In this document: positions 2,576 through 47,856 of the stretch, piece after piece | How positions within the stretch are numbered: position 1 is the first letter of the stretch | How the letters are laid out: each line of letters starts with the position of its first letter | NCBI GenBank assembly: GCA_035491955.1 | Contig: DATJJU010000015.1 | Span: 30,440-94,439, forward strand | DNA length: 64,000 bases | Source: Minisyncoccota bacterium | Lineage (GTDB): Bacteria; Patescibacteriota; Minisyncoccia; Phycocordibacterales; UBA9973 | Direction: 5' to 3' | Program-made: the position numbers and the translations under genes | The notes under the pieces: model-generated | Told to the model about the DNA's origin: nothing | The model's database searches: none | What the model saw: the letters and a program-made list of their open reading frames with translations, nothing else

Positions 2576-5500
2576 ATGTCTAAAACAAAAAATACGGACG
2601 TTCGTCCAAAGAAGTACTTTGCGAAGTACAAGAAACCATTTATAGAATTTCCAGATCTTATCCATCACCAGCGTGACTCATTCAATTGGTTGGTAGAAAA
2701 AGGTTTGACTGAAGTATTTAAGGAATTCACTCCTATTCAAGACTATTCTGGCAAGAAATTCCAACTCGACTTCGTATCATTCCATTTGTCTGAGCCGAAA
2801 TTCGATGAACACTATGCCAAGGAAAACAAGCTCTCACTCGAAACACAAATCAAAGCTCGCGTAAAACTCACCAACAAGCAAACTGGTTCTGAAAAGGAGC
2901 AAGAAATTTTCATGGCTGATCTTCCAGTTATGACTCCTCACGGCACCTTCATTATTAACGGTGTTGAGCGCTCAATCATTCCTCAGCTTTCTCGTTCAAG
3001 TGGTATTTTCTTTACTGAGCTTGAAGTGAAAGGCAAGCGCTACTTTGGTGCAAAAATTATTCCAAACCGTGGTGTCTGGATTGAAATCGAATCAGATCCC
3101 GATGGCTCTATATATGTACGTATCGACAAGAAGCGAAAGTTCCCAGCTGTTTCTTTGTTGCGCGCTCTTGGTCTTGAAAATGATGAAGCTATCAAGAAGC
3201 TTTTCAAGAATGAAGCTGCTGCAAAAATGATCGCTCACTCTATCGAAAAAGATCCTGCCAAGAATGCTAGTGATGCATTCGTAGAAATCTACCGTAAGCT
3301 CCGCGATGGCGACCTTGCTACTCCAGACAATGCTCGCGACTTCGTGAACAATCTCTTTTCTGAAGAGCGCTACGACCTTTCTCCAGTAGGACGTTTCCGC
3401 TTCAACAAGCGTTTCGGTCTCGACATGAGCGACAAGGAAATGGAGCGCAAGACTCTTTCTGCTCAGGATATTGCCATCATCCTCAGCAATATCGTTGAAC
3501 TCAACACTACTCCTGGCTCTCATGCTGATGATATCGACAACCTCGCGTCTCGCCGCGTTCGTTTCGTTGGTGAAATGCTTCAGCAGAAGATCTTCACTGG
3601 TTTGACTCAGATCAAGCGTAATGTGCAGGATCGCATGTCTACTATTGATGCATCAAATGCATTGCCTATTCAGGTGGTAAACCAGCGTCCATTGCAGGCT
3701 CGTATCAAAGAGTTCTTCACTACCAACCAGCTTTCACAATTCATGCAGCAGGATAACGTCTTGTCTGAAATTGAAGAATTGCGCATGTTGACCGCATTGG
3801 GTTCAGGCGGTTTGACTCGTGAGCGCGCAACATTGGAAGTGCGTGACGTGCACCCATCTCACTATGGCCGCGTCTGTCCTATTCAGACACCAGAAGGTCC
3901 AAACATTGGTTTGGTATTGCGTCTCTCTATCTACGCTCGCGTGAATGCCTTCGGTATCATCGAAACTCCATACGTCAAAGTAAAGAACGGTAAGATTACC
4001 GGCGAAGTGGAATACTTGAATGCTGCAGAAGAAGAAAAGTGCATTATTGCTCACGCAAGTAATGACTATGATGACAAGGGCAACCTTTCTGAAATGGTAG
4101 AAGCTCGTATTCGTACTAGTCCAGGCATCGTAAAAAAAGAAGAAGTGAACTACATTGACGTTGCTCCAAACCAGGCCTTCTCAGTCGGTACATCAATGAT
4201 TCCATTCGTTGATCACAACGATGCGAACCGTGCCTTGATGGGAAGTAACATGCAGCGACAAGCGGTGCCATTGATTCGTCCAGAAGCACCATTGGTTGGT
4301 ACTGGTGTAGAAGAAGCGGCAGCTCCATATTCAGGACGCCTTATCTTGGCTGAAGAAGCGGGAGAAGTCACTTATGTTGATGCTTCAAAGGTTACTGTCA
4401 AGAATGAAAAAGGGAAGGATAAGACTTATACTCTTGTTTCATTCCAGCGTAACAACAACTTCAATGCATTCCACCAGCGCCCAGTAGTGACACTTGGTCA
4501 GAAATTGAAAAAGGGAGATCTCATTGCTGACATGTCTACTACTGATCGCGGACAAATCGCGCTTGGTCAGAATATGTTCGTAGCATTCATGAGCTGGAAC
4601 GGTGCAAACTTCGAAGACGCTATCATTCTCTCAGAGCGTATTATCAAGGATTCAAAATTCACTTCTATTTATATTGCTGAGTTCGTGTCCGTTGTGCGCG
4701 ACACCAAGCTTGGTCCAGAAGTCACTACTCGTGATATTCCAAACGTTGGCGAAGCTCGCTTGAAGGACCTCGATGAAGACGGCATCATTCGCGTTGGTGC
4801 AGAAGTGAAGGAAGGCGACATCTTGGTAGGTAAGATTACTCCGAAAGGCGAGACAGAACTTACTCCTGAAGAGCGTTTGCTCCGCAGTATCTTCGCCGAA
4901 AAAGCTCGCGATGTGAAAGACACATCATTGAAGATGGATCACGGCAAGCGCGGACGTATTATTCGCGTAAAAGTATTCTCTCGCGATCAAGGACACACCC
5001 TTGAATCAGGTGTGATCAAGAAGATCGTTATTGAAGTCGCTCAGCTTCGAAACATTTCAGTCGGTGACAAGCTGGCTGGCCGCCACGGTAACAAAGGTGT
5101 TATCTCAGTGGTGCTCCCAGAAGAAGACATGCCATACATGGCAGATGGTCGTCCTGTTGATGTTGTGCTGACACCGCTTGGTGTGCCATCACGTATGAAC
5201 CTCGGACAAATTCTCGAATTGCACTTGGGTATGGCTGCAAACGAACTCGGCTATCAGGCCATTGTTCCTCCATTCGCAGGAGCAAGTGATATTGAAATCA
5301 AAGAAGAACTTGTGAAAGCAGGATTGCCAGAAAACGGTCGCGTGCCACTCTTTGATGGACGCACTGGTGAAAAATACGAACAGGATATTGCTGTGGGCTA
5401 CATGTACATCTTGAAGCTGCACCACATGGTCGAAGACAAAATCCACATGCGCTCAATTGGTCCATACTCTCTTATTACTCAGCAGCCATTGGGCGGTAAG

Positions 5501-5779
5501 GCACAAGGCGGTGGTCAGCGTTTCGGAGAAATGGAGGTCTGGGCATTGGAAGGATACGGCGCAGCGCATACGCTTCGCGAAATGCTTACTATTAAGTCCG
5601 ACGATATTCGCGGACGTGCAGCGACATTCGATGCCATTATCAAGAATGAGCCGATAGGTGAACCGAATGTTCCAGCCTCATTCTCGGTCATGTTGAATTA
5701 TCTCCGCGGATTGGCATTGGACGTTGAATTGATCAAGCCAGCACAGGTCGAGGAAGAAGAAGTTAATAACACCAAATAA
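2576..5779 (+). CDS. rpoB: DNA-directed RNA polymerase subunit beta
   Basis: 1067 aa. Conserved RpoB blocks are present throughout (e.g. 'GRHGNKGV', 'PFMxDG', 'NMQRQAVPL'). Confidence 0.97.
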   Translation: MSKTKNTDVRPKKYFAKYKKPFIEFPDLIHHQRDSFNWLVEKGLTEVFKEFTPIQDYSGKKFQLDFVSFHLSEPKFDEHYAKENKLSLETQIKARVKLTNKQTGSEKEQEIFMADLPVMTPHGTFIINGVERSIIPQLSRSSGIFFTELEVKGKRYFGAKIIPNRGVWIEIESDPDGSIYVRIDKKRKFPAVSLLRALGLENDEAIKKLFKNEAAAKMIAHSIEKDPAKNASDAFVEIYRKLRDGDLATPDNARDFVNNLFSEERYDLSPVGRFRFNKRFGLDMSDKEMERKTLSAQDIAIILSNIVELNTTPGSHADDIDNLASRRVRFVGEMLQQKIFTGLTQIKRNVQDRMSTIDASNALPIQVVNQRPLQARIKEFFTTNQLSQFMQQDNVLSEIEELRMLTALGSGGLTRERATLEVRDVHPSHYGRVCPIQTPEGPNIGLVLRLSIYARVNAFGIIETPYVKVKNGKITGEVEYLNAAEEEKCIIAHASNDYDDKGNLSEMVEARIRTSPGIVKKEEVNYIDVAPNQAFSVGTSMIPFVDHNDANRALMGSNMQRQAVPLIRPEAPLVGTGVEEAAAPYSGRLILAEEAGEVTYVDASKVTVKNEKGKDKTYTLVSFQRNNNFNAFHQRPVVTLGQKLKKGDLIADMSTTDRGQIALGQNMFVAFMSWNGANFEDAIILSERIIKDSKFTSIYIAEFVSVVRDTKLGPEVTTRDIPNVGEARLKDLDEDGIIRVGAEVKEGDILVGKITPKGETELTPEERLLRSIFAEKARDVKDTSLKMDHGKRGRIIRVKVFSRDQGHTLESGVIKKIVIEVAQLRNISVGDKLAGRHGNKGVISVVLPEEDMPYMADGRPVDVVLTPLGVPSRMNLGQILELHLGMAANELGYQAIVPPFAGASDIEIKEELVKAGLPENGRVPLFDGRTGEKYEQDIAVGYMYILKLHHMVEDKIHMRSIGPYSLITQQPLGGKAQGGGQRFGEMEVWALEGYGAAHTLREMLTIKSDDIRGRAATFDAIIKNEPIGEPNVPASFSVMLNYLRGLALDVELIKPAQVEEEEVNNTK

Positions 5780-5780
5780 T

Positions 5781-8700
5781 ATGAAAACATTAGACACAAC
5801 AAATTTTGATAAAATCTCTCTCAAGATCGCAAGTCCTGACGCTATTCGCGAATGGTCATATGGAGAAGTAACAAAACCGGAAACAATCAACTATCGTACT
5901 GGACGCAGTGAGCGCGGAGGCCTCTTCGATGAGCGCATCTTCGGTCCTGAAAAAGACTATGAATGTTATTGCGGTAAGTACAAGCGTATTCGTTACGCTG
6001 GTATTATCTGCGAAAAATGTGGCGTGGAAGTAACTATGGCTATCGTTCGCCGCGAACGCATGGGCCATATTGAATTGGCTTCTCCTGTTGCACATATCTG
6101 GTTCTTGCGTGGCGTACCGTCTCGTATGAGCATCTTGCTTAATGTTTCTCTCAGTGACTTGGAAAAGGTTGTCTACTTTGCCGGCTACATCATTACTACT
6201 GTGCATGAAGACGAACGAGAGCGCATCGTAGCTGAACTTGATGCTGAATTTAAGAACAAGCTCAAGAATGCTGCCGATGAAGACACTCGCGAAAAGTTGC
6301 GCACCCTCCTCACTAATACAAAAAAGGAAATTGCAGAAATCCGCGTTGGTAAGGTATTGAATGAAATCTCATATCACCACTACTCATTGAAGTATGGTTC
6401 TGCATTTGAAGCCGGTGTTGGTGCTGAACCAATTTACCAGCTCTTCAAAGAAATGGATCTTCACAAGCTTAAGGAGTCTACAGAAAAGATGCTTGAAAAG
6501 GCTGGCGCAGCAGAACGTGAAAAGCTTCACAAGCGTTTGTCACTCGTGCGCGGCATGATCTATGCAAACATTCGCCCTGAATGGATGTTCCTCACTGTTA
6601 TTCCAGTTATTCCTCCAGCCATCCGTCCGATGGTGGCATTGGAAGGTGGCCGTCATGCTACTTCCGATATCAACGACCTCTATCGTCGCGTGATCAACCG
6701 AAACAATCGTTTGAAGAAATTGAAAGAAATCGGCGCTCCAGATGTGATCTTGCGTAACGAAAAGCGTATTTTGCAAGAAGCAGTAGACGCATTGATCGAC
6801 AACTCTATCGCCGGACAAGACAGTCCTGCTATGAGTCAGGCTCAGCGTCGTGCGTTGAAGTCTTTGTCAGACAACTTGAAGTCAAAACAAGGTCTCTTCC
6901 GTCAGAACTTGCTCGGTAAGCGTGTTGACTACTCAGCCCGCTCTGTGATCGTTGTTGGTCCGACCCTTCGTTTGAATCAATGCGGTCTTCCAAAGCATAT
7001 GGCCTTGGAACTCTTCCGCCCATTCGTAATCTCAAAGATCATTGAACAAGAGCTTGCGTACAACATTCGCGGTGCCAACAAACTCATCGAAGATGGTATT
7101 CCAGAAGTCTGGGCTATCTTGGAAGAAGTGATCAGAGGCAAGTACGTTATGTTGAACCGTGCTCCGACCTTGCACCGTCTTGGTATTCAGGCCTTCATGC
7201 CAGTATTGGTTGAAGGTAATGCGATCAAGGTGCACCCACTCGTTTGTCCTGCGTTCAACGCCGACTTCGACGGTGACCAAATGATGGTGGCATTGCCTCT
7301 CTCTGATCTTGCTCAAAAGGAAGCGCGTGAATTGATTGCCGCTGACAAGAATATCTTGAAGCCTCAAAACGGTGACTCAATCGTGTCATCAAAAATGTTG
7401 GACATTGTCCTCGGCTGTTACTGGATGACTACTGCTATTGATGGTCAAAAAGGCGAAGGCATGTACTTTGCAAGTCCAAATGAAGCGATCACTACGAACG
7501 ACTTTGATGCTGTTTCTCTTCGTGCCAAGATCAAAGTCTTGGGTACTCAGAAAGGCAAGTACGCTGCGTTTGAAAACAAGCCATTCGAAACAACTATCGG
7601 ACGACTGCTCTTCAATGCAGTATTGCCAAGTGACTTCCCATACATGAACGAAGATATGACTGGTAAGAAAATGGCCGGTGTCGTGGATTCATTGATTGCG
7701 AAATACGGAGTAGACCTTGTCGCTCCAATGCTCGACCGCATTAAGGACTTCGGATACAAGTACGCTACTCGTTCAGGTACAACATGGAGTATTGATAATG
7801 TTATTGTGCCAAAAGAAAAGCCAGCTATCATTGCCAAGTACAAACAGCTTGAAGCCGACATTCGCTCACAGTTCGAAGAAGGTTTGCTTTCTGAAGACGA
7901 GCGCTATGAAAAGGTTATCTCTAACTGGAATAAGGCAAAGAATGAGATTGAAAAAATCTTGCCTGATACTATCGAGAAGCACGGTTCTGTCTATGATATG
8001 GTCATCTCTGGCGCCCGAGGTTCTATGAGTAACGTTACTCAGATGGCGGGTATGAAAGGTTTGATTCAAAACACAACCGGTCGTACTATTGATTTCCCAA
8101 TCATTCCATCATTCAAGGAAGGTCTTTCACCGCTTGAATACTTCATTACTACTCACGGTTCACGTAAAGGTCTGGCCGACACAGCATTGAACACTGCTCG
8201 TGCTGGTTACCTTACTCGTCGTCTTGTTGATGTCTCTCAGGATATCGTGATCACTGAAGAAGACTGTGGAACAAAAGGCGCAAAGCGCATGACTCCTGAA
8301 GTCATCTCTGGTTTGGAAATTCCATTGAGCAAGAGTATTCGTGGACGCGTTTTGGCCAAGGATCTTGTTACAGAAAGCGGTGAAGTGCTCTTCAAGCGTG
8401 GACACCTGCTCGGCAAAGATGATGTAGCATTGGTGGAAGAAAAAGGTGTGAAGGAAGCATATGTTCGTACTCCAATGATATGTAAGACTATCTACGGTAT
8501 TTGTCGACAGTGTTACGGTCTTGATCTCGGACGTAACCACCTTGTCAATCGCGGTGAAGCGGTTGGTATCGTGGCGGCGCAAGCGATCGGTGAGCCAGGT
8601 ACTCAGTTGACTCTTCGTACATTCCACGCCGGCGGTTTGGCAGGTGTCGACATTACATCAGGTCTTCCTCGTGTTGAAGAAGTCTTTGAATGTCGCATTG

Positions 8701-9404
8701 TTAAGAATCCTGCAGCCGTCAACAAGTATGCCGGTACTGTTTCAGAAATTAAAGACAATGCAGGTGAGAAGACTATCGTTGTACTCTCAAACAAAGACAG
8801 TGATGCTAAGAAAGATTCTGTTGAATACACTGCAGGTCCTCGTCGTGTGCCAATCGTAAAAGTGGGGCAAGAAGTAGCGAAGGGCGAATTGCTCACAGAC
8901 GGTTCTGCAAACGTTGAAGAAGTGTATGAATACGGCGGACGTGAAGCAGCGGAAGATTACATTATTCGTGAAATTATCAAAGTGTATGAATTGCAGGGTG
9001 CATCTATTGCCCGCAAGCACTTGGAAATCATCGTTCGTCAGATGTTCTCACGCCGCAAAGTGAAGGATGCTGGAGATACTTCATTCTCACCAGGAGATGT
9101 TATTGAGGCAACCGAGCTCATGGAAGAAAATGCTCGCATGCGTGCAACCGGCCTCAAGGAAGCAAAGGGCGCGCTCATTATCTTGGGTATTACTCAGACT
9201 GCATTGAATGCCAAGAGTTGGATCTCTGCCGCTTCATTCCAGAACACAAACCGTGTCCTCATCACCAACGCTGTGAAGGGCGGTACTGACACACTTCGCG
9301 GTCTTAAGGAAAACGTAACTGTCGGACGATTGATCCCGGCTGGTACAGGCTTCCGCGAGCGCAGTGCTCTCGACATCAACAATATTAAGTTTGACGAGGA
9401 ATAA
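5781..9404 (+). CDS. rpoC: DNA-directed RNA polymerase subunit beta'
   Basis: 1207 aa. A Zn-finger '[23 protein letters not shown]' and the catalytic 'NADFDGDQM' motif are present. The start is 1 nt after the rpoB stop. Confidence 0.97.
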
Positions 9405-9406
9405 GA

Positions 9407-11143
9407 ATGGATAACAGGCTGTTCGAACAAATAAAGAATCGCCTGCCTATCACCGAAGTCCTGTCTACCTATATCACGCTGGAACCATCTGGATCTCAGT
9501 ATAAGGCTCGATGTCCCTTTCACAATGAAAAGACTGCGTCGTTTTCGGTCTCACCGGAACGCGGTCTTTACTATTGCTTCGGCTGTGGAGCAAAAGGAGA
9601 CATCTTTAACTTTGTTGAACAATTCGAAGGTGTAGATAGAAAAGGTGCGCTGAAGATATTAGCCGATAGGGCAGGTATTCCACTTACCGCATATCGTACT
9701 ACTGATGACTCATCAGATAGTCTATATGATGCAATGGAAAGTGCTACAAAAAAATATACCACTATCTTGCAAAGTAATACTGAGGCAGTGAACTATCTCA
9801 AGCAGAGAGGGGTAAACGATCAAACTATTGAAGAATTTCGCTTAGGCTATGCTCCGACTGAATGGCGCACACTCTCTTCGAGTCTTGATCAAAAAAGCGC
9901 AGGATTCTATGAACAAGCTGGCCTTGTAAAGAAAACGGAGAAAGGATATTACGACAGATTTCGTGGACGCATTATCTTTCCTATGGCAGACAGCAGTGGC
10001 CGTATCGTGGCATTTTCAGGAAGAATTTTTCCTGAAACGCCCAAAGGAGTCCAAGAGGGGCCGAAATATCTTAATAGTCCAGAAACGGAACTATTCCAAA
10101 AGTCTCGCATACTCTTTGGTTTTGATAAAGCCAAAGCTGCTATTAAAAAACATAACTTTGTCATCTTAGTGGAAGGACAGATGGATCTTATTCTCAGTCA
10201 TCAAGCCGGATTTAAAAATACTGTTGCCACATCTGGTACTGCTGTATCCGAAACCGTTATCGGTGATACAGGTGCGCAGCTCTCGGTGATTGCGCGCCTC
10301 ACACCAAATATCTTCTTAGCATTCGATGGAGACAGTGCCGGACAAAAAGCCCTTGAACGTGCAGCTCTTGTCACATTGTCGCTCGGTATGAATCCAAAAG
10401 TGGTAGCGCTACCGGAAGGTATGGATCCAGCAGATTTTATTGGTGTCGGAGGTCCTGAGCAAAGCGAAGCGTGGAAAGAATTATTGAAAAAAGCTGAACA
10501 CTTTATTCCGCATGTTTTGCATAGTATTCAGCAGGCTAGCACGTCTGCTCATCAATTGAAGCACGCTATTCGTACCAGACTTTTTCCATTTCTCTTGCGC
10601 GTTCAATCAGCAATCGAAAGAAATGTGTATCTTAATCTCATTGCTTCTGAATCAAGCCTTGGTATTAAGGAGGTGAATGATGACTTTTCTAGCTTTATGC
10701 AAGAGAATCAAAAAGAGAAGCAAAATGAATATAATCAAAAAGAAGCAATCGCCATACCTGATGCATTCATCCGCAAGCCCATTAGTCATAGCGAGCGCTT
10801 CATGTCTATCGTGGAAGTGTATCCGGATGAAATGGCAAAAAGCTATCACACAAACCTCGCAAACTATCGCTTCAATAATACACCGATTGATCTTCCTTTG
10901 TTTGAGGGAGATCACAAGGATCGGGCAATCGCTATCATTGAAAGAGAGCTTGCAGGCCTTGATGAAAACCAAAGAGAGGAAATTTTGAAGGAATTGCACG
11001 ATACTATTATTGCGCAATTCTTGGAGCAATTGCGTTTTGAATACGCCATGAAGATGAGCGAGGCGAAACGACAGGGGAATGAGGAAGAAGAACTACAGTA
11101 TCTAGCGCTTCTTCAGAAGATTCACCAGCAATTGAAGATTTGA
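9407..11143 (+). CDS. dnaG: DNA primase
   Basis: 578 aa. A CHC2 zinc finger ('[13 protein letters not shown]...[11 protein letters not shown]') and a Toprim region ('ILVEGQMDL', 'DGDSAGQKA') are present. The gene starts 2 nt after the rpoC stop. Confidence 0.9.
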
Positions 11144-11189: not shown

Positions 11190-12503
11190 ATGCCAAAAAA
11201 ACCCGTTAAGAAATCACAACCAAAGAAAGCAGTAAAGAAGGCGACCGCCTCAAAAAAGACCCAGCTGGCAAAGGGTAAAAAGCCAGCAAAGAAAACAGTC
11301 GTTAAGAAGACTGTAAAAAAAGCAAAAGTTGTGAAGCCAGTAAAAAAGGCTGCTACTCCTCCTAAGAACAAACCAAAACCAATCACGATTCGTCATGCCG
11401 GTACTGCTCCGCGTCGCGAAAACAATAGTGAGAAGAAAATAAAAGAAATGGAAGTAAAGTCCCAAGAGCTTATTGTCAAAGGCAAGAAGCGCGGCTTTAT
11501 TACGTATGATGAAATTTTAAAAACATTCCCGGATATTGAAAACAATATCATGTTCCTCGATGAACTGTACGAAAAGTTCAGCGTAGCAGGCATTGATATT
11601 TTGGAAGGTGGAAATCTGCTCGATATCGATAGCAATGAAGACCTTTCAAAATATGTCAAAGACAGCCACAGTTTCAGTTCGGTGCAAATGTATTTGAAGG
11701 ATATCGGACAGTACCCATTGATCAATGCGGCTCAAGAAAAAGAGTTTGCGAAGCGTATCGCAGCCGGAGACTTGGAAGCAAAGAATCTGCTTGCTCGTTC
11801 AAACTTGCGCTTGGTAGTGTCCATTGCCAAGAAGTACGCTAACCGTACCGCTGACCTGACATTGCTTGATCTTATTCAAGAAGGAAACATCGGGCTCTTT
11901 AAGGCAGTTGAAAAGTTTGACTATACCAAAGGCTTTAAGTTCTCAACCTATGCGACATGGTGGATCAGACAATCAATCACTCGTGCACTGGCTGACCAGT
12001 CACGTACCATTCGTATCCCTGTGCACATGGTAGAAACTATTTCTAAGTATAAACAGGTCATGCGTCGTTTGGCACAAGACTTAGGCCGTGATCCAATGCC
12101 GGAAGAAATTGCAAATGAAATGGGTATCGAAGTTGAGAAAGTTCATGTTATTGAGCAGATCAACCAAGAGACTCGTTCATTAGAGTCTCCGATCGGTGAC
12201 GATGAAGACAAGTCTACATTTGGTGAGTTCATTGCCGATGATAAGATTCTTCGTCCTGACCAGGAAGCCAGTCGTCGCATGCTGCAGGATGCTATCCGCG
12301 CCGTGCTTGAAGAGCTTTCTCCAAAAGAGAAGCGTATCCTTGAAATGCGCTACGGTTTGATTGACGGTGTACAGCACACCCTCGAAGAAGTCGGTAAAGA
12401 GTTTGGTGTCACTCGCGAACGTATTCGTCAAATCGAAGCCAAAGTTCATGAAAAGCTTCGCCAAAACGACCGCATCCAACGCCTCCGCAACTATTTCGAC
12501 TAA
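11190..12503 (+). CDS. rpoD: RNA polymerase primary sigma-70 factor with a ~70-aa lysine-rich (histone H1-like) N-terminal tail
   Basis: Regions 2-4 are conserved ('[10 protein letters not shown]', 'TYATWWIRQ', region 4 HTH '[19 protein letters not shown]'). The N-terminus '[23 protein letters not shown]...' consists of KKxx repeats instead of an acidic region 1.1. Confidence 0.9.
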
Positions 12504-12542: not shown

Positions 12543-12572
12543 CAAAAGCCGTCCAATCAGGGACGGCTTTTG
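12543..12572. terminator. bidirectional intrinsic terminator between convergent rpoD and dsbA-like genes
   Basis: Hairpin AAAAGCCGTCC-aatcag-GGACGGCTTTT with a U-tract on both strands. A second perfect palindrome, CCATAGG-aaatt-CCTATGG, lies at about 12506-12524. Confidence 0.6.
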
Positions 12573-12589: not shown

Positions 12590-13360
12590 TTACTTCAAAA
12601 GGGAATCGATATCCTTCTCAACCGCATCAAGAGGGTATGAACCAGGAATAATGATTTGTTTGCCGGTCTTGGTATTTACGATAATGCTGAATGGCGTACC
12701 TTGCGCGCCGATTGATTCAGATTCTTTTATACTTGCGTCAATTGTTGCACTAGTTGCTGGATTAGCAACACAAGTATTGAAGGCATTCTTATCAACACCT
12801 TGTTCAGATGCGAATGTTGCTAATGTGTTGAAAGTGTCTTTCGTAGGAGAAAGGGTAACATTCATAATGGCATCAAGAAAACCGTTAAATGCTTTTGCTC
12901 CGCCAAGCTGACCGACACAATCTAGGGCCTCTGCTTCATTATGAGAGTCCGGGTGAATATCAAGAGGGAAGTAGCGATACACCCATGCCACTTTTCCTTT
13001 GTAGTCTTTCACCACCTGTTGAAGGACGGGGTGAAATTGCTGACAGAACGGACAGTCACTGTCAGAGTATTCGAAGATCAAAATTTGCGCATTTGCATCC
13101 CCGCGGATATGCGCCATATCGCTCGCGCGAAGAGTGGTAACGCTGGCCGGAATACTTGTCGGGGTCGTAGGTGCTGAGCCTGCCGTATTGCCTGTAGCGC
13201 TAGTACTTCCTGATGGATGTAAAGCGATAATAAGCGCTAATGCGATCATTGCTGCGCCCGTTACTATTGCAGCCGCAATAGTAAGAGGGGCTTTGCTCTT
13301 TATTTGTGTCTCTTGCTGCTGAATTTCAACAGGCTGTTCTTGATTTTCTTGTGGTTCCAT
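12590..13360 (-). CDS. membrane-anchored DsbA-family thiol:disulfide oxidoreductase (thioredoxin fold)
   Basis: An N-terminal TM helix is followed by a thioredoxin-like domain carrying the CPFC active site ('DSDCPFCQQFHPV'). Confidence 0.7.
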   Translation of the reverse strand: MEPQENQEQPVEIQQQETQIKSKAPLTIAAAIVTGAAMIALALIIALHPSGSTSATGNTAGSAPTTPTSIPASVTTLRASDMAHIRGDANAQILIFEYSDSDCPFCQQFHPVLQQVVKDYKGKVAWVYRYFPLDIHPDSHNEAEALDCVGQLGGAKAFNGFLDAIMNVTLSPTKDTFNTLATFASEQGVDKNAFNTCVANPATSATIDASIKESESIGAQGTPFSIIVNTKTGKQIIIPGSYPLDAVEKDIDSLLK

Positions 13361-13398
13361 ACCCGCAGTATATCGTATTTTCTATCTGGAAAAAATAG

Positions 13399-13422
13399 GC
13401 CCTTCATGCTAGTATGAAGGGC
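13399..13422. promoter_or_regulatory. perfect 9-6-9 palindrome GCCCTTCAT-gctagt-ATGAAGGGC in the divergent dsbA-like / GT2 promoter region
   Basis: Read directly. It ends 2 nt before the GT2 start codon. It could be an operator or an RBS-sequestering hairpin. Confidence 0.3.
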
Positions 13423-13423
13423 A

Positions 13424-14674
13424 ATGACCGTAGGGGAAATAATAACGTATGCAGTCATATTTTTGGCTGTCTATGTGCAGGTATTCCTTTTTGTGACCTA
13501 TCTCGAGCATCGCAAAAAGCTGCCACAATTGATGAGTCAGGACGTACCGGAGATCCATAATCCTCCAAAGGTGGCTATTATCGTGCCTTGTTGGAACGAA
13601 GAAAAGACTGTCCATGGCACCATCGCTTCCATCCTAGCGCTTGATTATCCACAGGACAGACTAGAAGTAATTGCTGTTGATGATGGGAGCACGGATACCA
13701 CATGGCAAGAGCTGCAATATTACAAGGACAATCCGCGCGTGCGCATCTTCCAAAAAGAGAATGGCGGCAAGCACACTGCTATTAACTTTGGTATTGATAA
13801 TACGGATGCAGAAATTATTGGAGGACTTGATGCAGACTCATTCGTAGCCCCTGATGCTTTGAAGCGTATGGTCGCCATGTTTCAAGCGGACCCCGCTGTT
13901 ATGGCCGTCACGCCATCGCTGATTGTTCACAATCCTAAAAATCTTCTTCAGTATGCTCAGCGCGTAGAGTACAACATGAGTACTTATAATAAGAAGATGC
14001 TGTCATTCCTTGGCGCTATTCACGTAACACCAGGACCTTTTTCTCTTTTTCGAAAGTCACTCTTTGATCAGATTGGCAAATTCCGCAAAGCTCACAATAC
14101 TGAAGATCAGGAACTTGCATATCGCATGCAGAAAAATCACATGAAGATTGAGCACTGCGTCAACGCATATGTGTATACATCTTCTCCTAATACTGTGAAG
14201 AAATTATATAAACAACGCTTGCGCTGGATCTACGGCTTCATTCAAAATACTATCGACTATCGCCAGCTTGTATTCAATCGGGAGTATCTCAATTTCTCTT
14301 TCTTTACCTTGCCGTCAGGCATTATTTCTATCATTGCTGTCGTTTTCCTGTCAGGAACATTCTTATACGATCTTATCGTCTTTATCATAAAGAAGATTAC
14401 CCAATACTCTACGATCGGCTTTACAACAACACGCTTTCATTTTAACTTCAGCCTTTTCTATATCAATACTCAGACGGTGTTCTTCATTACCATCATTCTG
14501 TATGTTCTCCTTATTTTTTCTATTGTCATGGGCACTCGGCTCAACCAACAGGGTAAGGGGTTTGATTGGCATATCATTCTCTATATAGTCGTGTACAGCA
14601 TCATTGCACCATTCTGGCTTTTGAAAGCAGTATGGAATACAATTACAGGACGACGACAGCCGGCGTGGCGATAA
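13424..14674 (+). CDS. family-2 processive beta-glycosyltransferase (cellulose/chitin/PNAG-synthase-like), membrane-integrated
   Basis: GT2 core 'IVPCWNEE...AVDDGSTD', the 'DADSF' DxD motif, a QxxRW motif 'QRLRW', and multiple C-terminal TM helices. Confidence 0.8.
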   Translation: MTVGEIITYAVIFLAVYVQVFLFVTYLEHRKKLPQLMSQDVPEIHNPPKVAIIVPCWNEEKTVHGTIASILALDYPQDRLEVIAVDDGSTDTTWQELQYYKDNPRVRIFQKENGGKHTAINFGIDNTDAEIIGGLDADSFVAPDALKRMVAMFQADPAVMAVTPSLIVHNPKNLLQYAQRVEYNMSTYNKKMLSFLGAIHVTPGPFSLFRKSLFDQIGKFRKAHNTEDQELAYRMQKNHMKIEHCVNAYVYTSSPNTVKKLYKQRLRWIYGFIQNTIDYRQLVFNREYLNFSFFTLPSGIISIIAVVFLSGTFLYDLIVFIIKKITQYSTIGFTTTRFHFNFSLFYINTQTVFFITIILYVLLIFSIVMGTRLNQQGKGFDWHIILYIVVYSIIAPFWLLKAVWNTITGRRQPAWR

Positions 14675-14678
14675 TACT

Positions 14679-15398
14679 ATGAAGGATTTTAAAAAATATT
14701 TTATCGTACTTCTTATTACGGCCGGACTCTTTGCGGTTGCATGGTCTGCCAGTGAATACTTTAACGACCAGAAGATTGCTGAAATTCAAAAGGCTCAAGA
14801 TCAGGCAACGGTAGATGTTATGTCCTCTGAGACGCAGTTTGACTTGCTTGAAGAGCAGTCATGCCAGGATATTGGCAACAATTACTTGGCGCAGGAAATT
14901 TCTGATCTTGCAGATAAGATCTCATATGCTGAGCAAAATATTAACGACCAAACGCAGATTGCACTGTTGAAACAGCAATATTCAGTGCTAGAAGTAAAAG
15001 ATTTTCTTTTGAACAAGCAGATCAGTGCTCGCTGCAAGACACCGATTGCTACTATTTTATATTTCTACAAAACGGACAATACCTGTGCAGATTGTACCAA
15101 GCAAGGGTATGTTCTTGATGCGCTCCGTCAAAACTATCCTCAGATTCGCGTGTACTCATTTGATGCAGGTCTCGACAGCTCTACTATTAGAGCATTGCTC
15201 ACTATTTATAAAGTTCCGGACAATCTACCAGCACTGATTATTAATGGCAAAACAAAAAGTGGTTTTATGAGTATGGATGATATTACAAAGCTTCTCCCAA
15301 AAACTGTTATCAATCCGGTGACCCCCAAGGCAACAACTTCTACTCCGGCCGTAACTTCAAAAAAGCAGGTTATTCCTACTAGTCAGACCAGTCAATAA
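14679..15398 (+). CDS. membrane-anchored hypothetical protein, possible thioredoxin-like fold (CADC), Thr/Ser-rich C-terminal tail
   Basis: An N-terminal TM helix is present. 'YFYKTDNTCADCTKQG...LPALIINGK' resembles a thioredoxin/glutaredoxin-like CxxC fold. The gene is translationally coupled to both neighbours. Confidence 0.4.
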   Translation: MKDFKKYFIVLLITAGLFAVAWSASEYFNDQKIAEIQKAQDQATVDVMSSETQFDLLEEQSCQDIGNNYLAQEISDLADKISYAEQNINDQTQIALLKQQYSVLEVKDFLLNKQISARCKTPIATILYFYKTDNTCADCTKQGYVLDALRQNYPQIRVYSFDAGLDSSTIRALLTIYKVPDNLPALIINGKTKSGFMSMDDITKLLPKTVINPVTPKATTSTPAVTSKKQVIPTSQTSQ

Positions 15399-16837
15399 TG
15401 AAAGGGTTTTTAAAATCGCATTGGATACTGATCACTACCATTGCAGCGTTTGCGCTGGTTCGTATTGTCACCTTGACCTATCATGGTGTGCCGTACTGGG
15501 ATGCTGCTATTTATATAGGCATGGGAAAGTATCTCTTTTCTCACGGCATTATTGGTACATGGGAAATTCTTCGCCCGGTTGCATTGCCAATCGTTTTGGG
15601 ATCTTTTTGGAAGCTGGGCATTAGTCCGTATCTTGCCGGCACAATCATTAGCTTGCTCATTAGCTGCGCCACTATTGTCTTGGTCTATTTTTTTGCAGAA
15701 GATATTCGCACAGGAGCAGGAGATATTGCAGCTGTAGTTCTGGCTGGTTGCGGAGTCTTTTTTACATATAGTGCTGTTCCTATCACCGATATTATTTCCA
15801 CATTCTTTTCATTGCTGGCGTTATGGCTTACGTACAAAGCTGATAAAAACAGGCAGTATTTTCTTGCCGGCATTACCGTAGCAATAGCATTTATGTTTCG
15901 TTTCCCGCAAGGACTACTTTTGCCATCTACGATGCTTGTGACATTCATAAAAATGTTTCAAGAAAAAGGAAAATGGAATGACAAAATCGTTCGCATGTTG
16001 GAAAGAGTATTTTTGATTGGTGCGGGCTTTTGTATCATAGTTGTACCGTTTCTTGTAGTAAACTATTCTTTTTATCACAATGCTTTCTTGCCATTCATTG
16101 AAGGCACGGCAAGTATTAAAAGTTATCCGAGTTTATACGGCAAAGGCGTATGGTTCTATCCGCTACAGCTATTGAAAGAAGATTTTCTATTGATACTTGG
16201 CATTCTGCCTATCGCTTTATTTTATAAGAAGCAGTATCGATCAAAGGCTGTTATTGCTGTCACAGTGGCGATAGTGATTGTTGGAGGATATTTCGGTATC
16301 TATCAATGGCATAAGGAACTTCGCTATGCATTAGCGTTTCTGCCGTACCTCGCTATTCTTGCTGGTGCAGGCATTGTGTATGTATTGGAGTGGACAAAAA
16401 TGCCGCGCATGCTTTTTTTTGGATTGTTTCTCATTGCCGCATTTATGGTAGCTGCACCACTCTTTGTTTATCGAAATATTGATTCAGATGCGCCGATGTT
16501 CTACAAGTTTGATACATACTTCACGCAAACGCCCGGTGCCCATATCCTGACCACCTCTCCATATACACTCGCATATAGTAGCGTCTATATCACTCACAAC
16601 TTATATGCTGATTGGAATGCTGCATACAGCGATTACAATTCGTTCAAATCTACTAATGACTACATCGCGCTTAACAGTTGCAGTCTTGAGCTTAACTGTC
16701 CCGATGATGGGGGACACTGCACTGACGACAAGCAAAAACTCCTCGCTGAACTAAATAAAGAAGACACTCTCGTCCTCACAACCAAAACCCCTGCACCGAA
16801 TAATTGCGTACTCTCAATATACAAAATAAACCACTAG
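15398..16837 (+). CDS. GT-C fold glycosyltransferase, PMT_2/ArnT-like (GT39/GT83 family)
   Basis: About 11 predicted TM helices. An N-terminal luminal loop 'HGVPYWDAAIYIGMGKY' resembles the D/E motif loop of PMT/ArnT family enzymes. A Cys-rich C-terminal soluble domain is present. TAATG start overlaps the upstream stop. Confidence 0.55.
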   Translation: MKGFLKSHWILITTIAAFALVRIVTLTYHGVPYWDAAIYIGMGKYLFSHGIIGTWEILRPVALPIVLGSFWKLGISPYLAGTIISLLISCATIVLVYFFAEDIRTGAGDIAAVVLAGCGVFFTYSAVPITDIISTFFSLLALWLTYKADKNRQYFLAGITVAIAFMFRFPQGLLLPSTMLVTFIKMFQEKGKWNDKIVRMLERVFLIGAGFCIIVVPFLVVNYSFYHNAFLPFIEGTASIKSYPSLYGKGVWFYPLQLLKEDFLLILGILPIALFYKKQYRSKAVIAVTVAIVIVGGYFGIYQWHKELRYALAFLPYLAILAGAGIVYVLEWTKMPRMLFFGLFLIAAFMVAAPLFVYRNIDSDAPMFYKFDTYFTQTPGAHILTTSPYTLAYSSVYITHNLYADWNAAYSDYNSFKSTNDYIALNSCSLELNCPDDGGHCTDDKQKLLAELNKEDTLVLTTKTPAPNNCVLSIYKINH

Positions 16838-16861
16838 AAAAATCCCCTTTTGGGGATTTTT
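16838..16861. terminator. bidirectional intrinsic terminator AAAAATCCCC-tttt-GGGGATTTTT
   Basis: A perfect 10-bp stem with A/T tracts on both sides. It terminates the GT-C operon on + and the tRNA operon on -. Confidence 0.7.
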
Positions 16862-16863
16862 CT

Positions 16864-16940
16864 GTGGAGCCGGAAGACAGGTTGGGCTGACGAGATCCTT
16901 CGCTTTATACAAAAGGTCACTACAACTGAACTATTCCTCT
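16864..16940 (-). pseudogene. degenerate tandem copy of tRNA-Thr (tRNA relic)
   Basis: The minus-strand sequence aligns along its length with the adjacent tRNA-Thr (shared TAGxTCAGTTG, TTTTGTAxAAAGCGAAGG, GTCAG...CTGTCTTCCGGCTCCA). It has indels, an unpaired acceptor 5' arm and a CCCAACC in place of the T-loop. Confidence 0.5.
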
Positions 16941-16944
16941 AATG

Positions 16945-17017
16945 AGCCGGAAGACAGACTTGAACTGACGACCTTCGCTTTACAAAAGCGTTGCTCTACC
17001 AACTGAGCTATTCCGGC
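16945..17017 (-). tRNA. tRNA-Thr (anticodon UGU)
   Basis: Minus-strand read GCCGGAATAGCTCAGTTGGTAGAGCAACGCTTTTGTAAAGCGAAGGTCGTCAGTTCAAGTCTGTCTTCCGGCT. It folds as a cloverleaf with a 7-bp acceptor stem and an anticodon loop TTTGTAA. Confidence 0.8.
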
Positions 17018-17031
17018 ATACTGATATTCAG

Positions 17032-17454
17032 CTAAGCTACAATATCAGGTTTTTGTTCTTCTTGCAAACCTTCTGAAGGTTTTTTTCTTCTCGCATACAC
17101 CCTTCTCGGCTTCTCTCTTTTGGAGAGGCTCGCCAAGAAATATGAGGATGGTCCGTGTTCAAGGCCGGTCAAAAGGTCTTGTTCGGCAAAAGCTGCTTTA
17201 GCGCGAGGAAAGACTGTAGTAAATACTGTCTTGGCTTTTTTATTGCCCCACACGGCAGCTTTCTTGCTATAGCGAATGCTTTCGTACCAGCTTCGACGGG
17301 CAAGGCGGGCGGTTTTGTTCCAGTGACGTACAACATCGCCGCGCTTCAATGTCTTGCGCTCTAGGCCTTCTTCAGTCTGCCACCACAGCGCCATAGTAGA
17401 AAGCCATAGCGCGATGAGCAGTACTGCCAAAATGCATACTAAGATAAGTATCAT
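17032..17454 (-). CDS. hypothetical small basic membrane-anchored protein
   Basis: An N-terminal TM helix with a Lys/Arg-rich remainder. ATGA overlap with the tsf stop. Confidence 0.4.
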   Translation of the reverse strand: MILILVCILAVLLIALWLSTMALWWQTEEGLERKTLKRGDVVRHWNKTARLARRSWYESIRYSKKAAVWGNKKAKTVFTTVFPRAKAAFAEQDLLTGLEHGPSSYFLASLSKREKPRRVYARRKKPSEGLQEEQKPDIVA

Positions 17455-41077: not shown

Positions 41078-43462
41078 ATGTATCAGAATACCATTCGCAA
41101 ATTTAACATTATTTCTTTTAGTATTATCACTGGTCTTTGCATACTTTTGCCGTTCTTTTTTCTTCCCGCAACCTTGAGCGGTCTTGGAGCGACTAAGGCC
41201 GTCCTCTTATATGTTGCAGTATTCTTGGCATTCTCATTTTGGCTTATCGCGCAATTTCTAGAAGGAACATTCAAAGTTCCAAAACACAAAGCGTTGCTTG
41301 CTCTCGGTATTTGGGTAGTGCTCGCATTTGTTGGAGCGCTGACATCAAAGAACGTAAACGTGTCACTGTGGGGCAGAGGCTTTGCGCTGGATTCATTTGC
41401 AACCGTTCTTGTGATCGGACTCTTTACTTTTCTTGTTGCATCCTTTGCTCGCGATCAGCGTCGCTTAGTTCAGCTTTTCCTCGCCGCCTTTGGCGGTTCT
41501 GTTATTACAGTATTTCTTCAGGTTATTCTGTATGCTTGTCGGAATATCTCGTTTGTTTCAAAATATCTTGCTCATGTTACGACGCAAGGCACATTGGTCG
41601 GTTCTTGGATAGATTTTGCATACTTTGTCATCTTCACATTCCTTCTGGCCTTGATGATGTTTGAAGTGCTTGCTCCAAAAGGCCTCTTTAAAAAGCTGTC
41701 ACTTTTTGCCATCATTCTTTCGTTGGTTGTATTGGTATTCTTGAATTTCTCATTGGCATGGGTCATTACGATCGCTTCTGCATTGCTTGTCTTCGTGTAT
41801 AAGTCTTCTGTCGAGCGCTCACTTTCGAAAATGTTTGCTGCTAAGCGCGGTACTGACCAAGAGCTTGAAGGGGATCCCTCACAGCGTTTTCCTCTAATGT
41901 CTTTCATCTCGTTATTGGTGGGACTATTCTTCTTCTTGAGCAATGGTTCAATCGGTGCAAGTATCGCTCGTTCCGTTGGCATTTCATTTACTGATATCCG
42001 TCCTTCATTTGGCACTACTATGCATGTCATGCGCGCTTCATTAGCTCACAATCCTATCTTTGGAGCAGGCGCTGGCCGTTTTGCTGATGCATGGAATTTG
42101 TACCACCCGCTCACTATCAATAGCACCGTCTTCTGGAATACATCATTTGATACAGGGTACAGCTTCTTGCAGTCTATCTTCACTACCAACGGTATCTTGC
42201 CAACCCTCTTTCTTTTGGCTGCGTTGGTGCTTGTTATCATGCACGGTTTTAAGCTTTTCAATTATCAGTTTCCAGATCGCTTCAGCCGTTTCATTGGTGT
42301 AGCATCGGTGATCACTGTTGTAGCATTCCTATGCTTGATCATCTTTGCTTCTCCTGGCCTGGTTCTTGTCACTATCGGCTTCCTTTACTTCGGCCTACTG
42401 CTCGGTGTTTCAACATTGGTAGGCAAGACTAAACTTACCTCGTTTAACTACCTCCAAGATCCTCGCGCAAGCTTCTTCGCTATCCTGGCTATCGTGGTAG
42501 CTGCTATGGCAGGGTTCTCAGCGGTCTATTTCAGCGGCAATCGTTTCGCTAGTGTTATCTATTACAACCGTGCTCTTGCGGCACAAGATCAAGCCACTGC
42601 TCTCGATCGTTTGAACAAATCTATTTCTCTTTCCCCGAACGATATTTATTGGCGTACACGCACTCAGCTCTTTACCGGTGAATTTAATACGGCAGCACAT
42701 CAGACGAGTCCTGATAAAAGCCAGCTTCAATCACTCTTTAGTGGTGCAGAACAAAGTGCTCAAGGAGCAGTAGCGTGGGATCAGCACACGGCTGATAACT
42801 GGCTTGCACTTAGTCAGGTCTATCAATTGGTAGCAAATGCTCAAAACGCCGATGCATATACGCAAGGCAAAGCTGCTGCGGATCAAGCCATTGCTCTTAA
42901 TCCTAGCAACCCTGTCTACACGTTGAACGAGGCACAGCTCGCGCTGACAAAGCAGGATACAAGTAGCGCACTAAGCTATATTTCAAAAGCTTTGTCTTTG
43001 AAGCGAGATTATCTCGATGCATATGTTTTGAAGGCTCAGATTGAACTATCACAAGGGGATACCAATGCAGGCGTACGTGAAATGACTGCATACACACAAG
43101 TTGCGCCATATGATGATCAAGGATACCTATTGCTCGGCCAAGTACAGTTGCAGCAAAAAGATTATAACGATGCTCTGTTCGCATTTGCACGCGCTCGCGA
43201 TCTTGCTCCAACCAATCCAAACGACTACATCCAATACATCAGCGCCCTGGAAACTGCAGGACAAAATGCACAAGCTATCAGCGCTCTCCAAGACTTCCAT
43301 AAGCGCTTCCCAAATATTAACGGTGTTGATCAACAAATACAGCGACTACAGAATATGCCTACGCAGTCTAATCCTCTTGTTGCTCCTACTGCAGCAAACA
43401 CTGTTCCCTCTATCACTACCAACGCTTCTTCTGACGCTGCTACAGCGAAAAAGAAGAAGTAG
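41078..43462 (+). CDS. O-antigen ligase (Wzy_C)-like polytopic membrane protein with C-terminal TPR repeats
   Basis: About 12 TM helices. A Wzy_C-like loop 'HNPIFGAGAGRFADAW' and C-terminal TPR-like repeats are present. Confidence 0.55.
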   Translation: MYQNTIRKFNIISFSIITGLCILLPFFFLPATLSGLGATKAVLLYVAVFLAFSFWLIAQFLEGTFKVPKHKALLALGIWVVLAFVGALTSKNVNVSLWGRGFALDSFATVLVIGLFTFLVASFARDQRRLVQLFLAAFGGSVITVFLQVILYACRNISFVSKYLAHVTTQGTLVGSWIDFAYFVIFTFLLALMMFEVLAPKGLFKKLSLFAIILSLVVLVFLNFSLAWVITIASALLVFVYKSSVERSLSKMFAAKRGTDQELEGDPSQRFPLMSFISLLVGLFFFLSNGSIGASIARSVGISFTDIRPSFGTTMHVMRASLAHNPIFGAGAGRFADAWNLYHPLTINSTVFWNTSFDTGYSFLQSIFTTNGILPTLFLLAALVLVIMHGFKLFNYQFPDRFSRFIGVASVITVVAFLCLIIFASPGLVLVTIGFLYFGLLLGVSTLVGKTKLTSFNYLQDPRASFFAILAIVVAAMAGFSAVYFSGNRFASVIYYNRALAAQDQATALDRLNKSISLSPNDIYWRTRTQLFTGEFNTAAHQTSPDKSQLQSLFSGAEQSAQGAVAWDQHTADNWLALSQVYQLVANAQNADAYTQGKAAADQAIALNPSNPVYTLNEAQLALTKQDTSSALSYISKALSLKRDYLDAYVLKAQIELSQGDTNAGVREMTAYTQVAPYDDQGYLLLGQVQLQQKDYNDALFAFARARDLAPTNPNDYIQYISALETAGQNAQAISALQDFHKRFPNINGVDQQIQRLQNMPTQSNPLVAPTAANTVPSITTNASSDAATAKKKK

Positions 43463-47598: not shown

Positions 47599-47856
47599 AT
47601 GAAAGATGTAACAATCTATACAACCAATACCTGCCATTTCTGCAACTTAGCAAAGGCTTTCTTCAAGGAGCACAATGTTGCGTATACTGAATACAATGTC
47701 GGTACTGACGTCGAAAAGCGCCAGGAAATGATCAATATGACTCATCAGCTCGGTGTACCTGTTATCGTAGTGGGCGACACAGCAATGGTTGGATTTCAAG
47801 AAAATAAGGTAGCAGAATTGCTCGGCATCAATCAAACAATGCCAATGGCGGCTTAA
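47599..47856 (+). CDS. glutaredoxin-like protein (NrdH/YruB type)
   Basis: 'TCHFC' CxxC motif in an 85-aa thioredoxin fold. Confidence 0.7.
   Translation: MKDVTIYTTNTCHFCNLAKAFFKEHNVAYTEYNVGTDVEKRQEMINMTHQLGVPVIVVGDTAMVGFQENKVAELLGINQTMPMAA

Follow-up and report, generated by a model that had tools for sequence, protein, structure and literature searches.

Processive glycosyltransferases of family 2 (GT2), among them PgaC/IcaA, NodC and the chitin, hyaluronan and cellulose synthases, combine a shared set of sequence motifs with flanking transmembrane (TM) helices, polymerise a uridine diphosphate (UDP)-activated sugar and export the growing chain through a channel of their own. In BcsA-BcsB, a processive GT2 with such a channel is joined by an obligatory and mostly extracytoplasmic partner, which has a single TM helix as its anchor and is positioned above the exit of the channel. 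BcsB itself is large and C-terminally anchored, with carbohydrate-binding and flavodoxin-like domains and no known CxxC motif. PgaC and IcaA each require a small membrane partner, PgaD or IcaD, and these two partners are not homologous to one another (PMC7112194). Here we describe a locus of a Minisyncoccota bacterium in which a GT2 gene of this general type lies directly upstream of a gene for a membrane protein with a predicted thioredoxin fold, termed MID for its middle position. The stretch of DNA analysed, referred to as the window, comprises 64,000 nucleotides (contig DATJJU010000015.1 of assembly GCA_035491955.1, positions 30,440 to 94,439 of the forward strand), and positions given below are counted from its first letter. 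Four adjacent genes had originally been predicted, from the letters of the window, to form one dedicated surface-glycan or protein-glycosylation system. Comparison across related genomes instead defines the locus as a conserved core of synthase and thioredoxin-like partner, with a DsbA-like oxidoreductase as a common helper and a C-type glycosyltransferase (GT-C) as a lineage-specific add-on. A check of the open reading frames (ORFs) returned the four genes at exactly the coordinates first assigned to them:

12590-13360, minus strand: DsbA-like oxidoreductase, 256 amino acids
13424-14674, plus strand: GT2, predicted to be processive, 416 amino acids
14679-15398, plus strand: MID, predicted single-pass protein with a thioredoxin fold and a CxxC motif, 239 amino acids
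15398-16837, plus strand: GT-C transferase, 479 amino acids

A synthase gene and its constant partner

The analysis covered 84 loci, examined by tblastn and an iterated DsbA profile. The 80 genome loci are those most similar to the query (44-68% identity), and more distant members were reached only through the search of representatives. GT2 was found directly upstream of MID in all 79 evaluable loci, and in every one of them except a single locus the two genes are at most 45 nt apart. Divergently oriented DsbA-like genes stand upstream of GT2 at 55 of 69 loci, and a GT-C gene follows MID in only 7 of 62. Conservation of all four genes as a unit in relatives, the lack of which had been named as a refutation of the original view, is not borne out by these counts. 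In most loci no further gene separates MID from the convergent tsf operon, and the slot behind it is elsewhere filled by VIT1, pseudouridine synthase, peptidase S51 or HD-domain genes. The pair also persists outside this neighbourhood. At locus L087, GT2 and MID overlap by 10 nt among unrelated genes (RecO on one side; TsaD, NusA and Alr on the other) and no DsbA gene is present; the GT2 of this locus scores 169.5 bits to the PgaC_IcaA model, under its cut-off of 422.3. The L087 arrangement, removed from the rpoD/tsf surroundings, indicates that the pairing of GT2 with MID is independent of frozen synteny.

Within the window, the junctions on which translational coupling had been proposed are exact. 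GT2 and MID meet at TAATACTATG, and in the longer string 'cgaTAATACTATGaag' the GT2 stop codon occupies 14672-14674 and the MID start codon begins at 14679. MID and GT-C meet at TAATG ('caaTAATGaaa'), with a 1-nt overlap at 15398.

The GT2 of the window bears the features of a membrane-embedded polymerising enzyme. Among Pfam models it matches Glycos_transf_2 (119 bits) and Chitin_synth_2 (56 bits, cut-off 27) and also passes Glyco_tranf_2_3. The best NCBIfam match is PgaC_IcaA (TIGR03937) at 183.3 bits, with residues 12-409 aligned to 10-393 of the 407 model positions, and this is the only model matched end to end with inclusion of the C-terminal TM region; lower matches are to an XrtG-associated glycosyltransferase (101 bits), NodC (92 bits) and CelA (59 bits). 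The motifs of the group are present as DDGSTD (D87-G88-S89-x-D91), D136-A-D138, PGPFS, TED (E227-D228) and Q264-R-L-R-W268, and an alignment of 31 orthologues shows DDGSxD, DxD, PGxFS, ED and QRxRW to be invariant. Hydropathy analysis places one hydrophobic segment at the N-terminus (residues 6-24) and three towards the C-terminus (303-321, 352-370 and 384-402), all spanned by the PgaC_IcaA alignment. These model matches, invariant motifs and hydrophobic segments agree with the original prediction of a processive GT2 with DxD and QxxRW motifs and C-terminal TM helices. Judged by its sequence, the protein is a processive membrane-embedded synthase of the PgaC/IcaA/NodC/chitin-synthase type, which probably makes and exports a surface sugar polymer. 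The chain ends in 'GRRQPAWR', of which W415-R416 is invariant, and its agreement with the positive-inside rule suggests a cytoplasmic C-terminus, an orientation compatible with the GT2::MID fusion described below.

The adjacent protein, MID, is 100% identical to database entry VL576_03145, a 'hypothetical protein' from a metagenome-assembled genome of a Candidatus Paceibacterota bacterium. Neither PgaD nor IcaD was matched in it by Pfam or NCBIfam models. It has no Pfam hit of any kind and all of its NCBIfam matches are sub-threshold (PDO_seleno_TRX, 19 bits against a cut-off of 185), while its homologues score just 17-21 bits to Thioredoxin models, below cut-off. An AlphaFold2 model built from a 42-sequence alignment has a predicted local distance difference test score (pLDDT) of 79 overall and of about 90 in the C-terminal domain. 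In the model, a TM helix and the helical stalk that continues it (together residues 3-119) are followed by a beta-alpha-beta-alpha-beta-beta-alpha domain (residues 125-205) and by a disordered Thr/Ser-rich tail. The C136-A-D-C139 motif precedes the helix at 139-152, and a cis-proline, P184, precedes the strand at 185-188. Matches in the fold search include the C-terminal domain of DsbD and the membrane-anchored thioredoxin-family protein 4evm; a sequence search of the PDB gave only marginal thioredoxin matches. MID as modelled crosses the membrane once, N-in/C-out, and has a thioredoxin fold. The CADC motif, TM anchor and Thr/Ser-rich tail first described for it are all present, and the structure prediction suggested as a check did return the fold.

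In the MID family, C62 and C119 of the stalk, C136, C139 and P184 are invariant in 42 sequences. Also invariant in this set are T14 and F18, which lie inside the TM helix and thereby suggest helix-helix packing rather than the role of a passive anchor. Across the 143 representatives of 50%-identity clusters that cover the site, CxxC is retained in approximately 97%, with a variable and often acidic middle dipeptide (C-x-D/E-C). A scan of one genome per species located MID relatives in at least 596 species genomes, all with labels of the candidate phyla radiation (CPR) or Paceibacteria type apart from evident mislabels, and an exhaustive profile search at E<=1e-3 collected 1,178 clusters at 50% identity. 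The family lacks any curated Pfam or NCBIfam model and is previously undescribed. As for the Thr/Ser-rich tail, the idea that it is O-glycosylated by the GT-C enzyme found no support, the combined Ser and Thr fraction of the tail being 0.28 where a GT-C gene is present versus 0.23 where it is absent.

Natural fusions connect MID with sugar chemistry and with the synthase itself. Two MID representatives, P0169 and P0200, carry a C-terminal PIG-L domain of the N-acetylglucosamine (GlcNAc) de-N-acetylase, CE14-type family (43-48 bits, cut-off 28.2). P0169 is encoded at L087, positions 5989-7428, directly downstream of the PgaC_IcaA-like GT2. The fusion equips the extracytoplasmic end of the partner protein for the deacetylation of GlcNAc, and it is mainly this observation that hints at GlcNAc as a component of the polymer. 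A metagenome scan for relatives of the MID::PIG-L fusion returned nothing beyond the contig of the query itself, and no PIG-L domain was found in the 64-kb window. In one metagenome-assembled genome, GT2 and MID are joined in a single ORF of 717 amino acids (P0214; locus L088, positions 3970-6123) whose DNA has no internal stop.

The divergent oxidoreductase, the variable slot and the surroundings

The DsbA-like protein passes two Pfam models, Thioredoxin_4 (71 bits, cut-off 23.2) and DSBA (54 bits, cut-off 25.6), and has a CPFC active site, a GTP cis-Pro loop and a Ser/Thr/Pro-rich linker, in keeping with the CPFC oxidoreductase first proposed. A single N-terminal TM segment (residues 28-46) makes it membrane-anchored. 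Its nearest NCBIfam equivalog is matched at 67 bits against a cut-off of 190. The only other thiol-redox gene recognised among the scanned window proteins encodes a stand-alone glutaredoxin of 85 amino acids with a CHFC motif (47599-47856, plus strand).

The boundaries of the module and its control region are as follows:

12543-12572: left boundary, a perfect hairpin with a 12-bp stem (12 pairs, 7 of them GC) between the convergent rpoD (plus strand) and DsbA (minus strand) genes
13361-13423: intergenic region between the divergent DsbA and GT2 genes, 63 nt
16836-16863: right boundary, a perfect hairpin with a 12-bp stem, AGAAAAATCCCC-TTTT-GGGGATTTTTCT, which begins at the GT-C stop codon

T-runs on both strands make the left hairpin terminator-like in both directions, and the right hairpin likely terminates the GT2-MID-GT-C transcript. 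The control region between the divergent genes, originally put at about 60 nt, does contain the perfect 9-6-9 palindrome attributed to it, GCCCTTCAT-gctagt-ATGAAGGGC, located exactly at 13399-13422 and ending 1 nt before the GT2 start codon. A promoter-like sequence, CTGGAAAAAA...TGCTAGTAT, stands immediately upstream of GT2, and the palindrome overlaps its putative extended -10 element (TGCTAGTAT). Most related loci share the pattern TTGAAAAA-N~17-TGnTAnAAT in front of GT2, with 10-25 nt between its end and the start codon. When 77 upstream regions were compared, the palindrome sequence proved not to be conserved among related loci. A perfect inverted repeat of at least 7 bp occurs in only 21 of the 77, many of these resembling, by eye, G+C-rich terminators of the upstream gene, and the inverted repeats that surround this putative -10 at loci L001 and L007 are shorter and differ from the palindrome of the window.

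The GT-C protein passes PMT_2 (40.4 bits, cut-off 26.1) and Glyco_transf_22 (26.9 bits, cut-off 23.8) and has no NCBIfam match. Its AlphaFold2 model (pLDDT 90.4; predicted template-modelling score 0.89) is matched in Foldseek by STT3/AglB/PglB, ALG12/ALG9 and ArnT (template-modelling scores 0.57-0.63) and also by AftA and Pmt4, a breadth that points to a generic GT-C(A) fold and not specifically to that of the protein O-mannosyltransferases (PMT). A PDB sequence search gave no match. No MIR domain was matched by Pfam in the 479 residues, and Pmt structures align over about 250 columns only; without a MIR domain the enzyme is not a true PMT/GT39 member. The assignment to the PMT_2/ArnT-like GT-C enzymes, with its proposed test against PMT_2, therefore holds at the level of the family model and the fold. 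All of the 39 homologues compared have W34-D35 in the first extracytoplasmic loop. The C-terminal alpha/beta extracytoplasmic domain (about residues 380-479), correctly anticipated to be Cys-rich, has four cysteines in the last 52 residues, of which C434 and C441 are invariant in the same 39 sequences.

The company kept by GT-C in other genomes is informative as to its origin. GtrA and a small GT2 accompany it at loci L001, L042, L055, L061 and L075 and on one further contig, L051 has a GT2::GtrA fusion beside it, and L007 has GtrA alone on a contig that ends just past GT-C. The best NCBIfam matches of the small GT2 are to the dolichyl- or undecaprenyl-phosphate sugar synthases AglJ, PgfS, DPhHxTase, ArnC and PpgS. 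Neither GtrA nor the small GT2 was found in the 64-kb window or at the loci of its close relatives, and it is these close relatives only (GT-C 63-70% identical) that share the reduced layout of a DsbA gene divergent from GT2-MID-GT-C. The 1-nt overlap between MID and GT-C is conserved in the subclade of the window. Since GT-C outside the close relatives travels with GtrA and a small GT2 resembling polyprenyl-phosphate-sugar synthases, it belongs to a separate, classical three-component glycosylation cassette dependent on a lipid carrier.

The module is set among housekeeping genes, with rpoC (5781-9404), dnaG (9407-11143) and rpoD (11190-12503) on its left and, on its right, tRNA-Thr (16944-17017, minus strand), a membrane ORF of 140 amino acids, tsf and rpsB (minus strand), proS, mreB and mreC. 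A decayed second copy of tRNA-Thr (16864-16943, minus strand) adjoins the intact tRNA-Thr(TGT) gene, to which it is identical at 54 of 74 positions in a pairwise alignment; it was called by neither ARAGORN nor Rfam. Lying directly after GT-C at the edge of the variable slot, this copy could be a remnant of integration or duplication. The 140-amino-acid ORF (17032-17454, minus strand) has an N-terminal TM helix and no assigned family, and it overlaps the tsf stop codon by 4 nt (ATGA). Relatives were detected by tblastn downstream of tsf in about 10 related loci, and a similar-sized ORF is found there in most others, so that the ORF apparently represents a small membrane protein which, though unannotated, is conserved in the rpsB-tsf operon. 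The RpoD N-terminus (11190-11400, plus strand) has a histone-H1-like extension of about 70 residues rich in Lys, Ala, Pro and Val. Further away, a gene at 41078-43462 (plus strand), directly upstream of that for the lipid II flippase MurJ (43466-45172, plus strand), encodes a protein of 794 amino acids. It combines a membrane part of about 13 hydrophobic segments, which matches no Pfam family, with a TPR region at the C-terminus, and may be another envelope glycan enzyme of ligase type or GT-C-like.

A proposed exopolysaccharide system and its rivals

The explanation towards which we lean, with some reserve, is that the locus encodes a synthase-dependent and probably GlcNAc-containing exopolysaccharide system in which a thioredoxin protein replaces the PgaD/IcaD-type co-subunit, with DsbA as helper and GT-C as cargo. 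In such a system GT2 would polymerise a UDP-sugar, most likely UDP-GlcNAc, at the cytoplasmic face and thread the resulting beta-glycan out through its own TM channel. MID would be the dedicated co-subunit, and we infer that its N-in TM helix packs against the synthase as those of PgaD, IcaD and BcsB do, with the stalk holding the redox-type thioredoxin domain (CxxC and cis-Pro) outside the membrane above the exit site. From there, the domain could control the release of polymer, as a gate or regulator that responds to its own thiol/disulfide state, or it could have an extracytoplasmic partner as its target. The CxxC motif itself might provide redox gating of secretion, act on another envelope component or form a structural disulfide. 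The divergent DsbA probably oxidises the four external cysteines of MID, and would keep these invariant residues correctly oxidised together with the C-terminal cysteines of GT-C where that enzyme is present. The GT-C gene, which occupies the variable slot after MID, derives from a cassette of GtrA, GT-C and polyprenyl-phosphate-sugar synthase, and its product would transfer a lipid-carried sugar to an extracytoplasmic acceptor, either protein or polymer; in this genome the donor must come from genes elsewhere. A stronger form of the proposal, in which MID is an obligatory redox switch or catalytic subunit and the state of its CxxC, set by DsbA and by the surroundings or host surface, opens and closes secretion, we consider doubtful.

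Several observations weigh against the favoured explanation. The PgaC_IcaA score of the window GT2 lies far under the equivalog cut-off of 422.3 bits, which leaves a GlcNAc polymer as no more than its probable product; the protein also passes Glyco_transf_21, a model of the ceramide-glucosyltransferase or glycolipid type (46 bits, cut-off 21.7). No deacetylase, hydrolase or other exopolysaccharide gene was found at the locus or in the 64-kb window, and none of DsbB, VKOR or CcdA, as electron donor or acceptor, was recognised among the scanned window proteins. DsbA is missing from 14 of the 69 loci. A few MID homologues (for example P0207) are without CxxC, so redox chemistry may be dispensable. 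The MID::PIG-L fusions are rare (2 of 150 representatives), and the GT2::MID fusion, a singleton among 760 matches and possibly an assembly indel, is weak evidence only. Finally, there may be some functional coupling of GT-C to GT2-MID in the subclade of the window.

This last point bears also on the original view, that the four genes form one dedicated system. GT2 and GT-C would then share one glycan or glycoprotein as their substrate, with the redox proteins servicing its extracytoplasmic part, which is consistent with the co-directional order of GT2, MID and GT-C, with its 4-nt and overlapping junctions in the window and close relatives, with the conserved cysteines of the GT-C C-terminal domain and with the insertion of GT-C cassettes at the same spot in several separate lineages. 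We nevertheless regard it as unlikely. GT-C follows MID at so few loci, brings its own genes for donor synthesis and flipping (small GT2, GtrA) outside the close relatives and gives way to unrelated genes in the same slot elsewhere, while GT2, as a processive synthase using a UDP-sugar, needs no GT-C, and the Ser/Thr content of MID tails bears no relation to the presence of GT-C (0.28 versus 0.23). What stands of the proposal that joined a GT2, a GT-C and two redox components is the family assignment of each; the single system is better replaced by the three parts of core, helper and add-on.

We judge two further readings to be quite improbable. GT2 might be a membrane glycolipid synthase of the GT21 or processive glycosyl-diacylglycerol type that remodels scavenged host lipids, and MID would in that case be a neighbour either unrelated to it or regulatory. 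Dependence on host lipids is assumed for these bacteria, and both the Glyco_transf_21 score and the lack of other exopolysaccharide genes at the locus and in the 64-kb window would suit such an enzyme. It is opposed by the profile matches, among which PgaC_IcaA is the best and sole end-to-end one, NodC and the cellulose synthases rank next and Chitin_synth_2 also passes, and by the PIG-L fusion to MID, which points to an extracytoplasmic substrate containing GlcNAc. Alternatively, MID and DsbA could constitute a general envelope disulfide system of oxidase and reductase or isomerase, lying beside GT2 through frozen gene order alone. Both are membrane-anchored extracytoplasmic proteins with a thioredoxin fold and CxxC, and the rpoC-dnaG-rpoD ... 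tsf-rpsB-proS-mreB neighbourhood is strongly syntenic. Yet GT2 and MID are still paired at L087, where synteny is broken and DsbA absent; DsbA has been lost from some loci while MID is never found apart from GT2; the gaps between GT2 and MID are operon-like (45 nt or less); and the fusions tie MID to sugar chemistry through PIG-L and to GT2 itself.

If the exopolysaccharide explanation is correct, its interest extends beyond this locus. Paceibacteria are abundant, uncultured and genome-reduced, and next to nothing is known of their cell surface or of how they attach to hosts. A key envelope or attachment polymer could well be the product of a surface-glycan synthase that at least 596 species genomes have kept beside core housekeeping genes, and GT2-MID offers a concrete two-gene system open to heterologous expression. 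Were the redox switch real, it would represent a new control principle for synthase-dependent exopolysaccharide systems, one that replaces control of the cyclic di-GMP and PgaD type throughout a class of ultrasmall bacteria that depend on hosts. In any case, the view of the locus changes, in that GT-C is assigned to a mobile, lineage-specific glycosylation cassette outside the core.

Comparison with described systems

The closest described counterparts of the core pair are PgaC-PgaD of E. coli and IcaA-IcaD of Staphylococcus. In common with these, the locus encodes a GT2 of about 410-440 amino acids with flanking helices predicted to be TM and with DxD, TED and QxxRW motifs, next to a gene for a small membrane protein, which in the known pairs is required for full activity. 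In contrast to PgaD and IcaD, the partner here is a single-pass protein of 239 amino acids whose helical stalk carries a thioredoxin domain with CxxC. PgaA/PgaB and IcaB/IcaC are absent from the locus, and its sole link to a deacetylase is a PIG-L domain, not CE4, fused to MID in rare relatives. The resemblance to BcsA-BcsB, for which PDB entry 4HG6 was among the sequence matches, lies by analogy in the combination of a processive GT2 with a partner proposed to sit over the channel exit. Unlike BcsA, the GT2 has no PilZ domain, and its match to CelA is weak (59 bits).

The remaining two proteins have well-described relatives of their own. GT-C resembles the transferases of the GtrA/GtrB/Gtr-type GT-C, ArnC/ArnT, PgfS/PgfM and Ppm1/Pmt sets in passing PMT_2, in its GT-C(A) fold and in the invariant Asp of the first loop. 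Relatives of the locus extend the likeness to the full three-component arrangement, their GT-C being flanked by GtrA and by a small GT2 that matches AglJ, PgfS, dolichyl-phosphate hexose transferase, ArnC and PpgS, whereas the loci of the window and its close relatives are without both companions. The DsbA-like protein shares with DsbA/BdbD-type oxidoreductases the DSBA and Thioredoxin_4 matches, the CPFC site and the membrane anchor; it is set apart by the long Ser/Thr/Pro-rich linker, by the lack of a recognised DsbB or VKOR among the scanned window proteins and by its low equivalog score (67 against 190 bits).

MID itself is most like ResA, TlpA, CcmG/DsbE, StoA, BdbA and the gamma domain of DsbD, with which it shares an N-terminal TM anchor, a thioredoxin fold as modelled, a CxxC motif at the start of helix 1 and a cis-Pro loop. 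Unlike the proteins of the ResA/TlpA type, it has an extra helical stalk of about 95 residues with a second invariant Cys pair, passes no curated hidden Markov model and has a variable, often acidic CxxC dipeptide. We found no description of the GT2-MID pair in the literature searched. The folds of the components are known; what appears to be new is that a PgaC-like synthase is obligately paired, across a CPR class, with a CxxC membrane protein of thioredoxin fold. This association also distinguishes MID from the ResA/TlpA-type proteins, as MID is strictly linked to a glycan synthase and not to genes of cytochrome or spore-cortex maturation.

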